DNA of 64,000 nucleotides from the NCBI GenBank assembly GCA_963770945.1, contig CAVYRP010000002.1, positions 381,778 through 445,777 of the forward strand. The letters run 5' to 3'. Within the stretch, counting starts at the first letter, position 1; each line of letters begins with the position of its first letter. Below, in pieces: positions 13,671 through 21,530 of the stretch. The notes beneath the pieces were generated by a model. That model saw only the letters and a program-made list of their open reading frames with translations. It was not told the DNA's origin and ran no database searches. The DNA comes from an uncultured Bacteroidota bacterium (GTDB lineage Bacteria > Bacteroidota > Ignavibacteria > UBA10030). Both the position numbers and the translations under genes were made by a program.

Positions 13671-14174
13671 ATGTCCATTCTTCCCATCTATCTTTTTGGA
13701 ACCGAAATTCTCAAGAAAAAGGCCAAGCCGGTTGAAACACTGGATGATTCGATCATCAAGCTCATCTATGATATGTTCGAGACGATGCATAAAGCCAACG
13801 GAATCGGTCTTGCGGCAAATCAGGTCGGCGATCTTCGACGCGTTATTACGATAGATATTTCGGATGTCACCGAACCAAATGCAGAAGGTGAGATGGAGGA
13901 TTCTGCGCATCCAACTTCACCGGATCTTCCTCGAACGCTTGCATTAATCAATCCAGAGATTATAAATGAAGAAGATTCTTGGATCGATGGAAGAAGGATG
14001 TTTGAGCCTTCCGAGAGTGCGTAGGTGAAGTAGAACGGGCAGAAAAAGTACGTATCCGTTTTCGTGACAGTGAATTCAAGGTAGCAGGAACTTTTAGCTG
14101 ACGGATTGCTTGCGCGTGTTGTGCTTCATGAATTTGATCATCTCAATGGTGTTCTCTTCGTGGATCGTGATTAA
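13671..14174 (+). CDS. def: Peptide deformylase, interrupted by about 3 frame changes.
   Basis: N-terminus reads MSILPIYLFGTEILKKKAKPV and contains ..GIGLAANQVG. EEGCLSLP lies in a second frame, GEVERAEKVRIRFRD in a third, and ..LLARVVLHEFDHLNGVLFVDRD* in a fourth. Confidence 0.7.
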
Positions 14175-14277
14175 TAAGAGCAAAACGAAGTATGCTGCTG
14201 CCTAAATTGAGAAAGATTCGAAAAGGAGAAGTCGATCCCGACTATCCGGTGGTTACTGCTGCTGAGGACGTAACAGA

Positions 14278-15202
14278 ATGCGAATCCTTTTTATGGGCAC
14301 ACCGGAATTTGCGGTTCCAAGTCTTCGCATACTTCTGGATCATTCCTATGAAATCCCGGCTGTCGTAACAGCCCCGGATAAACCGAGAGGACGTGGTCAA
14401 CAGGTTTCCTTTACTCCTATTAAAGAGTTTGCAATTCATCATCAGATTCCGGTTCTTCAGCCGGAAAAACTTAACGATACAGAGTTTATTGCTGAAATCC
14501 AGGTTGCTTCACCCCGATCTCATTGTTGTAGTAGCATTCCGAATTTTACCGCGAGAAGTATATACGATCCCGAAACTCGGTTCTTTTAATCTTCATGCAT
14601 CGCTTCTGCCGAAATATCGCGGAGCCGCACCGATCAATTGGGCTATTATCAACGGAGAAAAAGAATCCGGCGTTACGACATTCTTTTTAAAGGATGAGGT
14701 GGACACGGGTTCTATCCTGCTTCAGACACGAGTACCAATCGGTCCGAATGACACTGCAGGTGATTTGCATGATACACTCTCTAAGGCAGGTGCAGAGACT
14801 GTTCTTCAGACTGTTCGCCTTATCGAACTCGGCAGCGCACAGCCGCGTACGCAAGACGATTCGCTTGCATGTCCTGCACCAAAGATTTTTAAAGAAGACT
14901 GCCGGATTGATTGGACGAAGTCGTCACAGCAGGTTCATAATTTTATTAGAGGACTTTCACCCAATCATACGGCTTGGACAACACATACGGGCAAGCTGAT
15001 TAAAGTATATCGTTCCGAAATAGTTGAAGGACAATCGACACAGGCAGGAATTATTTTGAGTCGAACACGGGACAAACTGGAGGTCGGAACCGGAAACGGT
15101 ATTGTTTCTCTCCTCGAAATTCAACAGGAAGGAAAACGCCGGCTCGGTATTGAAGAATTTCTTAGGGGTTATTCAGTTGAATCAGGTGAAATGTTTTACT
15201 AA
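14278..15202 (+). CDS. fmt: Methionyl-tRNA formyltransferase. Frameshift near 14510.
   Basis: N-terminus reads MRILFMGTPEFAVPSLRILL. A second frame continues ..HPDLIVVVAF...FNLHASLLPKYRGAAPINWAIINGE... Confidence 0.75.
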
Positions 15203-16096: not shown

Positions 16097-16669
16097 GTGG
16101 GTCGACTATCTTTCAATATCAGTTTGCTTTTCATCGGTATGACTCTCTCGTTTCTGGGTTGTGTTTCGTCGGAAGAAACAGGCGCAGGCGATAGAGCAAA
16201 ATCTCCGGTAAGGGTTTTCGATCCGATTGATACCATGGGCCTTACAGGCAGCCGGGAGATGAACCAGGATTCCATCCTGAATTTAAAAAACAATTTAAGC
16301 ATTTCAGATCGATCGTTGCGTATTGCACCAAAACTCAAATCAAAACAGGACACGGTGAGAGCATCCGTCATAAGGAAAAAGAAATCTTCCGTACGCCAGC
16401 ACATCAAAATCGAGCGTCCGGAACATCCGATCTATACCGTGCAAATAGGAGCATTCACTCAAGCTTCCAAAGCTTTGAGCACACAAAAAAAAGCAAAAGG
16501 CCGATTTATTTATCAGCCGGTTTTTAATAAATATATAAAGAATGCCAAACTGTACCGTGTGAGCATCGGCAGATATGAAAACCGCGAGGATGCGTTCGCA
16601 CTTGCCGATACTATGAAAGAACAATATCCCGGTGAGTACAGCAAATGCTGGATCAACTTCATACCATGA
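16097..16669 (+). CDS. SPOR-domain lipoprotein.
   Basis: The SPOR domain reads YTVQIGAF...LYRVSIGRYENREDAFALA. Confidence 0.6.
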   Translation: MGRLSFNISLLFIGMTLSFLGCVSSEETGAGDRAKSPVRVFDPIDTMGLTGSREMNQDSILNLKNNLSISDRSLRIAPKLKSKQDTVRASVIRKKKSSVRQHIKIERPEHPIYTVQIGAFTQASKALSTQKKAKGRFIYQPVFNKYIKNAKLYRVSIGRYENREDAFALADTMKEQYPGEYSKCWINFIP

Positions 16670-17209
16670 TGAAAACGCCGATAATATATTCTACACTTTG
16701 TTTTCTGGCATTGTTGTCGGCAGGATGTTCGTCGTCTTCTTCGTTGAGGCATAATGGAGAGCGCGGACAGGAAACATCGAAAGACGGCAATCGTTCATTA
16801 GCGGACTATGAGGCAACATTGGATCCGGCAGATTATGACCAGGAAATCGAAGTTATTGAGAAAATAAATATTGAGGAAGCGAAACAAAAGTCGTCGTTGG
16901 AAATTCCGAAAGACAGTCTGGTTATTGAGGAAGAAGTAGTACAGGGATTTCGAATTCAGATATTCTCTTCCTCCGGCGTTGATGAAGCAACTTTTATGAA
17001 AGGATATAGCAATTCAGAAATTTGTCGGCGATTCAGTATATGTAGTGTACGATGCACCTGTGTACAAAGTACGTGTGGGAGATTTTTTAAATCGCTATGA
17101 AGCAAACCAGCGGCTACCGGAGTTTACGGAAAAAGGATACAGGGATGCATGGATAGTACCTGATAGAATTATTCAGCGGAAATTCGTGCGTATTCCTCTT
17201 TCGAAGTGA
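16645..17209 (+). CDS. SPOR-domain protein with a frameshift near 17030.
   Basis: Contains FRIQIFSS... A second frame continues ..YVVYDAPVYKVRVGDFLNRYEANQRL. Confidence 0.5.
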
Positions 17210-17686
17210 GTTTATATCGGACTTTGCTTTTTTTGCAGCAAATACAATTAATTTTGGTCTATCTTAAAATTGCTCCGCGAAGGATTATTATTCGAGCATT
17301 TGTCAAGTAGCTGCCGCTTTTCCCTTAATGAATTTCTAACGGATAGAAACATTCCGATGAAATGAAGAACTTTTTCGAACTCTGCAGTGTTGGTAAACAG
17401 AGTACCGGAATTGACTTTTACATTCGCGATCCTAATTTCGACAAAACATTTTTTTTCTCTAGATAGGATTGATAGATGAAAGGAATTCTGTTTTTCATTT
17501 TCTTGAAGCTTTAGAATCGTATATATTTTTTTATTAAACGATTACAGCGGCCGGGAGACCTGATAAATGATATTAAGGGTGCAAAAAAAGAAACAAATTC
17601 ATGTTCGCATACATAAAAAATATTTTTTTATGTCAAGTGATTTTTATGACGATGTTCAACCCTTAAAAAAACACTTCATTTTTAAC

Positions 17687-17844
17687 TTGACAAAGGGACT
17701 GTAACAGAATATATTTACAACCAGTTGCGACGCCAAAAAGGCAGCAGGAAGGTACTTAATTCTTATAAAGTTTAGAGTCGTAAAAGAGGAGAATAAATGT
17801 GGCGCGCAACGGCCACTCTTTTTTATCATCAATATTTTTTCTGA
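17687..17844 (+). promoter_or_regulatory. nrdJ leader region. It contains a sigma70-like promoter (TTGACA-N17-TATATT, 17687-17715), a strong SD (aagaggag, 17784-17791), a 15-codon uORF MWRATATLFYHQYFF* (17797-17844) and a terminator-like hairpin with a T-run (17799-17824) that overlaps the uORF.
   Basis: Read directly from the sequence. The hairpin is GTGGC-gcgcaacg-GCCAC followed by tctttttt. The intergenic region spans 17210-17945, about 735 bp. Confidence 0.4.
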
Positions 17845-17945
17845 AAATTGAAATCAAATTATCCCAGCCGTCGTAAGACGTATTTATTATTCATTGGTTG
17901 GAAGCTTTTGTATTGCACCATACCATTTTAAGCAAGGAGTTAGAT

Positions 17946-20716
17946 ATGCAAAATGTGCAGTCCCCCTCAGCCCGAGTCCATTCACATACACAAGAACGAA
18001 ATGCTGTGAAACGGGGATTACGTTTCGAAAGATTTTTTACGAGACAAGGCGTACATCCATTCGATGAAATTGAATGGGAACGGCGTACTGCTACTATTTC
18101 GAACGATCGAGGCGAAAAAATCTTTGAACAAAAAGATGTTGAAATTCCCAAAATCATGGTCGATGACAGCAACGAATGTTGTTGTCTCGAAATATTTCTA
18201 TGGTCAATTGGGAACTGCAGAACGCGAAACGAGCATACGGCAGCTTGTCGATCGTGTCGCCAAATCGTACTATACATGGGGATTGAAAGACGGTTATTTC
18301 GCATCTGAAGAAGATGCGGAAATATTTTATCACGAATTGCTGTATCTTCTCGTCAACCAGTTTATGTCGTTCAACAGCCCGGTCTGGTTTAATGTCGGAG
18401 TTGAAAAAATGCCGCAATGTTCGGCATGCTTTATCAATTCGGTTAAAGATTCAATGACCTCCATTCTGGAGCTAGCGAAAACGGAAGGTATGCTCTTTAA
18501 GTACGGTTCGGGCACCGGTTCAAATCTTTCTACGCTTCGCTCCTCTAAGGAACGTATCACCGGCGGCGGTACTGCATCCGGACCGGTTTCATTCATGAAA
18601 GGGTACGATGCATTTGCAGGTGTTATTAAATCCGGCGGGAAGACACGCCGCGCAGCAAAGATGGTAATTCTAAATATTGAACATCCGGATATTATCAGCT
18701 TCATCAATTGTAAAGCGGAAGAAGAGAAAAAAGCATGGGCGCTCATCGATGCAGGTTATGACGGCGGCTTCAATGTGCCGGGAGGCGCGTACGATTCTGT
18801 GTTCTATCAAAACGCAAATCACTCTATCCGCGTGACCGATGAATTTATGAAAGCCGTGCTGGAAGATAAGGAATTTTGGACTAAAGCAGTAAAAGGCGGA
18901 ATGCCGATGGAAAGATTCCGCGCGCGCGATCTGATGAAACAAATTGCCGATGCGGCATGGATCTGCGGCGATCCCGGTATCCAATTCAATACAACGATAA
19001 ATAACTGGCACACATGTTCCGGTACGGCACCGATCAATTCATCGAATCCTTGCAGCGAGTATATGTTCCTCGATGACAGCGCATGCAACCTTGCATCGCT
19101 GAATCTTATGAAATTCCGCAGGACAAACGGCGATATAGATGTGGAAGCATTTAAGAAAGCTGTTCAGGTAACGATTACCGCAATGGAAATGTCCGTCGAT
19201 AATTCAAGTTACCCGACAGAGGCGATTACGCATAACAGTCACGACTTACCGTCCGCTCGGACTCGGGTACGCAAATCTCGGTGCACTGCTGATGTCCCGC
19301 GGTGTTGCATATGATAGTGATGAAGGCAGAACTCTTACCGCTGCTATTACATCTCTCATGTGCGGTGAAGCGTACAAGCAATCCGCAAAAATCGCCGAAG
19401 TACAGGGACCGTTCAATGGATTTGCAGCGAATAGAGATCCGATGTTGAATGTGATGGCAAAACATGGAATTTGCGCAGAACGCATCGACAAGAATGCAGT
19501 AGAACCCGGTCTCTGGGAAGCGCAGCATGATGTATGGAAAGATGTCGTAGAGTTAGGGAAAGAGCACGGCATCCGCAACGCGCAGACAACCGTTCTTGCC
19601 CCGACCGGCACGATCGGTTTCATGATGGATTGCGATACTACAGGTATTGAACCGGATATCGCTCTGGTGAAATACAAGAAAATGAGCGGCGGCGGTTTGA
19701 TGAAGATCGTCAACCAGACCGTGCCGGAAGCGCTTACGAAATTAGGATACGACGGCGAACAGATCGAGCATATTATTGCATACATCGATAAGAACGATAC
19801 TATCGAAGGCGCACCGCATCTGAAAGAAGAACATCTTTCGGTGTTCGACTGTGCATTCAAACCGGCAAATGGCAAACGTTCTATTCACTATATGGGGCAT
19901 ATCAGGATGATGTCGGCAGCACAGCCGTACCTGTCCGGTGCAATTTCAAAAACAGTGAATATGCCGACCGATGTGACCGCCGAAGATATTACACAGGCCT
20001 ATACCGAAGCATGGAAACTCGGGTTGAAATCCATTGCCGTGTACCGCGACGGATGCAAACGCACCCAGCCGCTCAGTACATCGCTCGATAAGAAAAAAGA
20101 AACACCGCAGATAACCAACAGGCCGGCACGCCGCCACTTGCCGGATGAGCGGGCATCTATTACTCATAAATTCAGCATTGCCGGACATGAAGGCTATATC
20201 ACTGTCGGAATGTTTGAAGACGGAACTCCCGGCGAGTTATTTATCACGATGTCCAAAGAAGGCTCTACGATTTCCGGCTTGATGGATTCGCTTGCTACAT
20301 CGATTTCGATTGCACTGCAGTACGGTGTGCCGTTGAAAGTGATGGTCGATAAGTTCAGCCATGCGCGCTACGAACCGTCGGGTTTTACGAACAATCCGGA
20401 TATTCCGATTGCAAAATCCGTAAGCGATTACATTTTCCGCTGGCTCGGCAGGAAATTTTTCAAAGACGAGAACGCAGCGGTGAATACGAATAATGAAGTA
20501 AGCGATGTGAAAATTTCAGAAGAAACCGCTAAGAAACCGGTAGGTATTCTCAATGCCGCGGCAACGAAAGCCGCTTCGGTGTGGGAGAAAAACGAGAAGT
20601 TCATATTTGAGACACAATCCGATGCGCCTCCATGCCACGAATGCGGAAGTATTATGATCCGCAGCGGCTCTTGCTATAAGTGCCTTGAGTGCGGCTCGAC
20701 TTCAGGTTGTTCCTGA
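17946..20716 (+). CDS. nrdJ: Class II adenosylcobalamin-dependent ribonucleotide reductase NrdJ, frame-disrupted near 18160 and near 19285.
   Basis: N-terminus reads MQNVQ..GLRFERFFT. It contains ..NSPVWFNVG..CSACFI..., the thiyl-radical region and ..RPLGLGYANLGALLM.., and ends in a C-terminal Cys-rich tail CHECGS..CYKCLECGS. The frame breaks sit at short homopolymers, for example tt at about 19233. Confidence 0.8.
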
Positions 20717-20918: not shown

Positions 20919-21530
20919 ATGCCTATCGCGCCAATCGTATATCCATTGCATCGTAACTCACAGAGACGAATCTATGAGGAAGGGGCGAGTTATTTCATTA
21001 CTACGGTTACTTACGATCGATATCCATATTTTCAAATACCTTTGCTTTCCGAACTTTTTATCAATGATTTATTGTTTGCAAGAGATCTTAAACAATTTAA
21101 ACTGCATGGTTATGCCGTTATGCCGGACCACGTGCATCTTTTGATCACGCCATCGGTAAAAGCGAATTATTCAGAGGTAATGCGGTCTCTTAAAACAAAT
21201 TATGCTCGAGATGCAAACGATATTATGTTTGATAGAAAGACAAATATCCAATCTGAAGGCGACGTGGCGCCACGTCGCCTTCAGATACATGCAAGACATG
21301 CGGAGTCCTCTTTTCCCGAATATCGTCGACGTTTTATTGATACTTATGGTCCTAACCATAATATTCCCTTTTTTAAATGGAGAAAATCCTTTCGAGATCA
21401 TATAATCCGTGGTGATAAAGACTTTTCAAATCATCTCGAATACATATTTAATAATGCAATGAAACATGCCCTTGTCGAAGAACCGAGAAAATGGAAATGG
21501 ATGTGGGTAGAAACTATGGATAATCAATGA
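20919..21530 (+). mobile_element. REP-associated tyrosine transposase (RAYT; IS200/IS605 Y1 HUH family TnpA).
   Basis: 203 aa. The HUH motif is MPDHVHLLITP. The C-terminal region reads FKWRKSFRDHIIRGDKDF..YIFNNAMKHALVEEPRKWKWMW. The 32-bp perfect palindrome at 21253-21284 lies inside the ORF in frame. Confidence 0.75.
21253..21284. repeat. 32-bp perfect GC-rich palindrome ctgaaggcgacgtggc|gccacgtcgccttcag (REP-like hairpin).
   Basis: Read from the sequence. It encodes SEGDVAPRRLQ of the RAYT. Confidence 0.8.

Follow-up and report, generated by a model that had tools for sequence, protein, structure and literature searches.

How is a ribonucleotide reductase gene controlled where no binding site for the usual repressor is found? 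Ribonucleotide reductase (RNR) sets the supply of DNA precursors, and its control in bacteria is usually ascribed to NrdR, which represses RNR operons via tandem 16-bp NrdR boxes in the promoter. The question is raised by nrdJ, the gene of a class II, B12-dependent RNR, in a 64,000-nucleotide stretch of DNA (hereafter the window; positions 381,778 to 445,777 of contig CAVYRP010000002.1, forward strand, assembly GCA_963770945.1) from an uncultured Bacteroidota bacterium (Ignavibacteria; UBA10030). The ATG of nrdJ at 17946 is separated from the stop codon of an upstream SPOR-domain open reading frame (ORF) at 17209 by a gap of ~735 bp with a G+C content of 30-35%, compared with 42-50% in the flanking genes. 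The initial annotation had found no clear NrdR palindrome here and, indeed, the 16-bp box (acaCwAtATaTwGtgt) had no match with <=3 mismatches in the gap; the sole match at that threshold, at 17033, falls within the upstream gene and is no more than expected by chance. Instead, the gap had been read as a long leader in which a ribosome translating a 15-codon upstream ORF (uORF) melts a terminator-like hairpin. Here, we favour, with slightly less belief than doubt, the reading that the nrdJ leader is a transcription attenuator made of competing helices, with the transcript's own 5' end as antiterminator.

The leader and its relatives

The closest NrdJ homologues were found in uncultured 'Bacteroidota/Ignavibacteriales bacterium' assemblies. 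Loci retrieved by protein similarity at ~79% NrdJ identity or above (L001, L082, L083, L205 and the incomplete L084) share the promoter block and the motif AGTTGC with the window. Loci from the genome collection at 72-74% NrdJ identity have different promoters and long leaders of their own, could not be aligned with the window leader and were set aside. Metagenome contigs were then scanned with the pattern CTTGACA-N17-TATATT-N6-7-AGTTGC, which returned 120 loci. In 55 of them nrdJ follows 240-330 nt downstream, and another 5 carry this leader truncated at the edge of a contig. Other metagenome matches to the promoter pattern, 68 in number, were unrelated promoters or incomplete copies of the nrdJ leader, and a regulon-wide promoter motif was rejected. 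Since the pattern fixes CTTGACA, TATATT and AGTTGC, conservation of these bases is partly by construction; all other positions were free to vary. The leaders were sorted into group A (10 distinct leaders including that of the window, NrdJ N-terminal identity ~87% or more), group B (N-terminal identity about 82-89% for most members), group C (GC-richer leaders, NrdJ identity about 70-83%) and the small group D (L001/L106 and L169).

Nucleotide identity between the window and each group A relative was determined segment by segment. From -470 to -70 relative to the promoter it amounted to 43-58%, which is background, but it was 82-89% in the promoter region, 72-89% in the two halves of the 5' untranslated region (UTR) and 79-89% in the first 210 nt of nrdJ. 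Therefore, 17210-17625 is spacer, and the functional unit comprises the promoter region (17631-17715) and a 5'UTR of ~225 nt. Of the 735-bp leader described before, the gap length and the AT-richness were correct but the extent was not; the leader covers only ~225 nt and the gap is mostly unconserved spacer. To judge from these identities, the ~225-nt 5'UTR is under purifying selection. The promoter TTGACA-N17-TATATT, placed at 17687-17715 by the initial annotation, is present there and conserved in relatives, the same block lying 240-330 nt upstream of nrdJ in the 55 metagenome loci and in 4 protein-retrieved loci. It is the only strong promoter-like site on the plus strand before nrdJ; with no second promoter, nrdJ expression depends on read-through of the leader. 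The features of this unit needed for the following analysis are:

17210-17625, plus strand: unconserved AT-rich spacer between the SPOR stop codon and the promoter region, with background identity and no tRNA or Rfam match; probably outside the leader
17685-17715, plus strand: sigma-70-type promoter ACTTGACA-N17-TATATT, 11/12 match to the consensus, with an unusually conserved spacer
17723-17945, plus strand: inferred nrdJ 5'UTR of ~225 nt, with the transcription start site (TSS) assumed 7-8 nt past the -10 box; conserved like the nrdJ coding sequence (81-89% nucleotide identity in group A)
17724-17735, plus strand: segment 1, the 5'-terminal strand GUUGCG(A)CGCCA, which pairs with segment 3 (helix P1) or segment 2 (helix P1')
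17777-17783, plus strand: segment 2, GUCGUAA, predicted early partner (P1') of 17725-17731, inside an insertion specific to group A
17799-17824, plus strand: T1, terminator-like hairpin GUGGC-N8-GCCAC (17799-17816) with U-tract UCUUUUUU (17817-17824), from a terminator scan
17864-17913, plus strand: T2', stem CCAGCC/GGUUGG around the GNRA hairpin CGUC-GUAA-GACG, followed by AAGCUUUUGUAUU; -9.3 kcal/mol
17934-17948, plus strand: nrdJ Shine-Dalgarno (SD) sequence AAGGAG and ATG (17946), invariant in all groups

Competing helices in the 5'UTR

The hairpin with U-run singled out by the initial annotation is present as GTGGC-gcgcaacg-GCCAC at 17799-17816, followed by TCTTTTTT. It has five pairs, four of them GC, an 8-nt loop and an energy of -7.9 to -9.1 kcal/mol. 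T1 and its U-rich tail are kept in 10/10 group A sequences; conservation beyond this group is partial, with compensatory changes in part of group B. In an alignment of 26 leaders drawn from groups A, B and D (A2; its two group D rows are out of register at the 3' motif) the five pairs of T1 were 71.9% paired and two-sided changes were found at 4/5 pairs, for example at columns 83-92 (CG:10, UA:5, UG:2) and 79-96 (GC:11, AU:3, CG:1, UA:1). T1 outscored all 500 column shuffles, in percentage paired as well as in covariation score, and every slid control. The group B locus L206, which was retrieved independently, carries AUGGU-N8-GCCAU and, after it, UCAUUUGUUUUGU. This comparative evidence shows T1 to be a genuine hairpin maintained by selection, in group A and about half of group B at least.

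Segment 3 (UGGCGCGCAAC, 17800-17810) consists of the 5' arm and the loop of T1 and is also the 3' strand of P1. P1 (17724-17735 with 17800-17810) comprises 11 bp interrupted by a single bulge, its duplex energy is -19.4 kcal/mol, and it was the only helix predicted by RNAalifold on groups A and B together. In A2 the core of P1 was 95.5% paired with AU:11/GC:10 at one pair, and the extension showed AU, GC, GU and UA variants. Cognate strand pairs were more stable than non-cognate ones (-13.8 versus -11.6 kcal/mol; permutation p ~5e-5 with 32 distinct 5'-strand types). An equivalent pairing of the 5' strand was found in group D and many group C leaders, as in the 11-bp helix of L106. Across these alignments P1 is the most widely conserved RNA feature of the leaders.

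P1 and T1 compete for 17800-17804. The A2 column 83 is shared by both: in P1 it pairs with column 10 in the register of group B (AU:4, GC:4, GU:3) and with column 11 in that of group A (GC:11, corresponding to G17732-C17803 in the window), whereas in T1 it pairs with column 92. That this column covaries with its partner in each helix indicates selection on both P1 and T1. A further partner of the 5' strand is predicted in group A, where the group-specific insertion carries both the P1' segment and an SD sequence; RNAalifold predicted P1' for this group. Nascent RNAs starting at 17723 were folded stepwise. The minimum-energy fold was P1' (17725-17731 with 17777-17783) at 63-76 nt and P1 at 89-94 nt, and it became P1' plus T1 once the U-tract was free. 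At the decision point, an RNA ending at 17816, P1 was the minimum-energy and the centroid structure. The two states are balanced in the window (-19.7 kcal/mol for P1 versus -19.5 kcal/mol for P1' plus T1), and in most of the 10 group A members they differ by no more than a few kcal/mol.

The proposed mechanism would run as follows. The leader would be transcribed from the sigma-70-type promoter at 17687-17715. If the 5' strand were free as 17800-17810 emerges, P1 would form, T1 would be blocked and the polymerase would read into nrdJ. If, in group A, the 5' strand were held by P1', T1 would be free to form and transcription would stop before nrdJ. Such a device is like riboswitch expression platforms and the trp-type four-segment attenuator in its competing helices sharing a strand (1:2, 1:3 and 3:4), its U-tract terminator, its place in the 5'UTR and its near-equal energies. 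Unlike the trp leader with its 2:3 pairing, the antiterminator of nrdJ would be the extreme 5' end of the transcript, which pairs 1:3, and unlike both known types the nrdJ leader shows neither a conserved aptamer core nor regulatory codons.

A second terminator-like position lies further downstream. T2' aligns with an element at the T2 position of group B and is a weak positional counterpart of the strong T2 in groups B, C and D. In groups C and D a strong hairpin followed by a U-run is found 60-70 nt before the nrdJ start, with -16 to -23 kcal/mol in most leaders measured, and in a 14-sequence alignment of group C the T2 stem covaries (GC:8/UA:5, AU:6/GC:4 and GC:11/AU:2). Because T2 terminators occur in groups B, C and D, attenuation is a theme of the whole clade, and in group A the hairpin with the U-tract appears to have moved to T1. 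Two further pairings were tried and rejected. In group C, the 5' strand did not pair with T2 consistently, and this pairing was dropped. UUGGUUG (17895-17901) could pair with ACAACCA just before the TSS but that stretch is probably untranscribed and the match is absent in group B. As a separate observation, group C leaders (L162:5090-5450, L112, L183 and L101; alignment A3) contain a GC-rich conserved domain, UUUACCCCCGAGACG ... ACACC ... CGAGAGGGGUCUAC, upstream of T2. This domain with its terminator has no Rfam match and is a candidate for an undescribed cis-regulatory RNA.

Several findings weigh against attenuation at T1. As an intrinsic terminator T1 is weak, with a 5-bp stem and an 8-nt loop, and its U-run is interrupted in 3/10 group A sequences. 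P1' is absent outside group A and shows no double compensatory change, only G-U-compatible variation; thus, it is a thermodynamic prediction. Throughout group B, P1 beats T1 by 3-15 kcal/mol, so that the conserved role of P1 may be that of a domain-closing or 5'-end-protecting helix and not of an antiterminator. The two helices are not exclusive along their whole length: the 6-bp pairing of the loop with the 5' end could in theory form alongside the T1 stem, giving a pseudoknot, and only the 5-bp extension of P1 strictly excludes T1. The whole leader folded no better than shuffled sequences (z = 0.29), and a stable global fold was rejected. Finally, the bases fixed by the search pattern were confirmed independently in only 4-5 protein-retrieved loci.

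The upstream ORF and other explanations

Is the uORF the sensor of the leader? As the initial annotation had it, the uORF has a strong SD, a 5-nt spacing, an ATG at 17797 and 15 codons:

17784-17791, plus strand: SD-like AAGAGGAG of the uORF; GAGGAGA is invariant in 10/10 group A sequences and absent from groups B and C
17797-17844, plus strand: 15-codon uORF encoding MWRATATLFYHQYFF, with the ATG 5 nt past the SD and the stop codon at 17842-17844
17842-17851, plus strand: invariant block UGAAAAUUGA containing the uORF stop codon, conserved in groups A and B

If this were a translation-coupled attenuator, a ribosome translating MWRATAT... would melt the hairpin and an RNA antiterminator would be unneeded. 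The strong SD, its spacing and the overlap of the ATG with the hairpin speak for this, as does conservation within group A: GAGGAGA ranks among the five longest invariant UTR blocks, on par with the SD of nrdJ itself, and the ATG is kept in 9/10 sequences. It is ACG in L149, however, and the peptide is conserved over codons 1-7 only, a stretch that coincides with the RNA motif. Indels in the U-rich stretch shift the frame in group A, giving products of 11-27 aa with unrelated tails and a displaced stop codon, and neither a codon run nor an enriched codon class was found in the group A uORFs. The leader is not an amino-acid-sensing leader peptide, and the uORF, if it acts, works via ribosome binding or passage and not via its peptide. 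Groups B and C have no SD-uORF although they keep the promoter, P1 and, in part, T1; AUG or GUG stands at the start position in some group B members, without an SD, and in group D there is a 16-codon ORF whose SD is poor. The SD-uORF is therefore a lineage-specific feature of group A and probably an add-on, not the core of the switch. In addition, the ATG abuts T1 and the start region is paired in both the P1 and the T1 fold. The initiation site would barely have left the RNA polymerase when the hairpin forms, leaving almost no room for a ribosome to load beforehand. Taken as the sensor, the uORF is an unlikely explanation. Of the earlier model, the conserved leader, the hairpin with its U-run and the SD remain; the uORF turned out to be confined to group A with an unconserved peptide, and the antiterminator had been missed.

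There are precedents for a ribosome acting on such a leader. The pyrBI leader peptide of E. coli mediates ribosome-dependent relief of a terminator. For the E. coli ampC attenuator, Jaurin and colleagues reportedly proposed in 1981 that a ribosome on the SD-AUG of the leader prevents the terminator, resulting in growth-rate control. A strong attenuator of chromosomal ampC is mentioned in PMC11024256. Like pyrBI and ampC, the nrdJ leader has an SD and an AUG at or inside a terminator hairpin, and the demand for the enzyme scales with growth. Unlike them, its SD-uORF occurs in one shallow lineage, there is no distance between AUG and hairpin, and an RNA antiterminator that would not depend on the ribosome is predicted. 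With a ribosome as input, the nrdJ leader would resemble the ribosome-dependent ampC attenuator more closely than trp-type leaders. In the attenuator of competing helices favoured here, the ribosome could be an additional input: segments 2 and 3 flank the SD-ATG in group A, and a 30S subunit bound there would occupy 17777-17812, keep T1 from forming and promote read-through, so that transcription of nrdJ could be tied to translational capacity. We put ribosome involvement of any kind at below even odds, because the ATG directly adjoins the hairpin, both folds sequester the start region and the sister groups lack the SD-uORF.

The length and the stop codon of the uORF in the window itself are uncertain since single-base indels in the window make homopolymer lengths in the leader unreliable. 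The nrdJ gene (17946-20716), whose ORF pieces match the Pfam domains Ribonuc_red_2_N, Ribonuc_red_lgC and TSCPD, is broken into three frames by two 1-nt insertions (at about 18146-18150 and about 19245-19250, one within a C-run) relative to the intact 922-aa ortholog of L176. The genes def and fmt and a second SPOR gene (13671-15202 and 16645-17209) are likewise split by single-base indels, which suggests either assembly errors or a genome in decay. In two relatives nrdJ was called as two genes, in L081:18-2774 (530+334 aa, 160-nt gap) and in L084:206-2949 (719+195 aa, overlapping); these could be assembly frameshifts or, for example, an intein or programmed frameshift. A 120-aa gene without Pfam match was called across the homologous leader at L083:1818-2180 (JGI contig); it is most likely spurious because the conservation pattern of the leader is indel-rich and non-coding. 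The block UGAAAAUUGA holds UGA in two frames, and a similar CUGAAAAUUG is found in the unrelated leader of L014. Directly 3' of nrdJ, the ORF 20919-21530 encodes a Y1_Tnp domain (IS200-like or REP-associated tyrosine transposase).

A second alternative is that the leader acts after transcription: P1 would bury the 5' end of the mRNA, GAGGAG would be a docking site of the STAB-SD type against 5'-end-dependent RNases, and termination at T1 would not be meaningful. In favour of this, P1 begins at ~+2 of the inferred transcript, dominates in group B and is conserved more widely than any other RNA element of the leaders. The STAB-SD, an mRNA stabiliser, is a concept reportedly put forward by Agaisse and Lereclus in 1996. 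PMC7509114 lists this work (Agaisse & Lereclus 1996) among its references. Like STAB-SD elements and 5'-terminal stem-loops, the nrdJ leader has an SD-like element in the 5'UTR far from the main start and a helix involving the 5' end; unlike a STAB-SD, its SD precedes a start codon and a terminator-like hairpin. In Pseudomonas aeruginosa, the long nrdAB 5'UTR affects both the amount and the stability of the mRNA, no effector having been named (PMC12528414), but RNR class and phylum differ and the likeness is limited to a long RNR 5'UTR. Stabilisation leaves the covariation of the T1 stem, the U-rich tail after T1 in 10/10 group A sequences and the strong covarying terminators in leaders of groups B, C and D unexplained, and we regard it as improbable.

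A third alternative is control mainly at the level of DNA, by a transcription factor binding to inverted copies of the -35 block, with hairpin and uORF as by-products. It draws on an element upstream of the promoter:

17631-17639, minus strand: TGTCAAGTG, which repeats the -35 block ACTTGACA in inverted orientation upstream of it; candidate for an operator or a second site of protein binding

TGTCAAGTG lies at a fixed distance of 53-55 nt from the -35 block copy at 17685-17692 in 23/23 group A and B relatives with enough upstream sequence (inverted repeat I16). A third copy, at 17299-17308, was seen in the window only, and the 8-mer ACTTGACA occurs 6 times in the window where 1.4 are expected. 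The promoter spacer (within 17693-17729) has the consensus AAGG.AC.G.AAC.G.. across all nrdJ leaders, and a GCAAC/GTTGC inverted repeat in the same stretch flanks the -10 box and the TSS; this repeat may be a DNA operator overlapping the 5' strand of the RNA. A divergent promoter with the TGTCAA of the upstream copy as -35 box was rejected, as no acceptable conserved -10 box was seen by eye on the minus strand. Like NrdR systems, the locus has an RNR gene and two conserved DNA elements that flank or overlap its promoter; unlike NrdR boxes, these are 8-9-bp inverted copies of ACTTGACA 53-55 bp apart. By their motif they are a candidate operator pair for a regulator other than NrdR, and the conserved DNA features of the promoter region make a DNA-binding regulator also likely. 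The fixed spacing, the number of copies and a promoter spacer conserved far beyond the needs of sigma-70 thus favour a DNA layer, though one with a motif unlike the NrdR consensus. Such a layer can coexist with an RNA layer but does not explain the coding-like conservation of the UTR or the RNA covariation of P1 and T1, and control mainly through DNA is quite improbable.

Known RNA elements were searched for, as well. No tRNA or tmRNA was found in 16500-18500. Rfam matched neither the whole window nor any of 13 related loci at gathering score; at E<=10, 17100-18050 and one group C leader gave nothing relevant. Thus, the Rfam check of the gap suggested by the initial annotation gave no family match, neither riboswitch nor small RNA. 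Riboswitches are known at RNR genes: the cobalamin riboswitch is found before nrdAB and nrdDG and usually precedes B12-independent RNR alternatives, and a 2'-deoxyguanosine riboswitch precedes RNR genes in Mesoplasma. The nrdJ leader is like these in being a structured 5' leader before an RNR gene, with terminator platforms in relatives, but unlike them it precedes the B12-dependent enzyme itself and matches no Rfam family even at E<=10. An orphan riboswitch or protein-binding leader, in which the P1/T1 module (possibly as a pseudoknot) and the blocks RCCAYYC and UGAAAAUUGA would bind a metabolite (a deoxynucleotide or cobamide) or an RNA-binding protein and so set read-through at T1 or T2, would fit the covarying closing helix, the terminator platforms, the invariant blocks that have no coding explanation, the lack of an Rfam family and the GC-rich domain upstream of T2 in group C, but it is very improbable, since P1 covaries while the 40-70 nt it encloses are conserved neither in sequence nor in length among groups A-D, unlike a ligand-binding core, the leader does not resemble the cobalamin or 2'-deoxyguanosine aptamers and its fold z-scores are unremarkable.

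Meaning for the control of nrdJ

A literature search found no description of an nrdJ leader, attenuator or riboswitch. In its widest form, the attenuator of competing helices would make the nrdJ leaders of this Ignavibacteriales-like clade an undescribed family of cis-regulatory RNA, defined by the shared promoter, a 5' GUUGC strand pairing with a downstream YGCAAY, and terminator platforms (T1 in group A, the strongly covarying T2 in the other groups). The family would sense a signal linked to deoxynucleotide supply (a nucleotide, a cobamide, an RNA-binding protein or ribosome availability) and take over the function of NrdR for a class II reductase; we consider this extension improbable.

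In sum, nrdJ of this uncultured lineage encodes a B12-dependent reductase, has no NrdR box, and is preceded by conserved promoter flanks and by a leader with competing helices that has no match in Rfam. If the switch were not real, the locus would be a long structured 5'UTR only. If it is real, it would be a testable example of control of a class II RNR at the level of RNA and, in group A, of a short SD-uORF grafted onto an older RNA switch.

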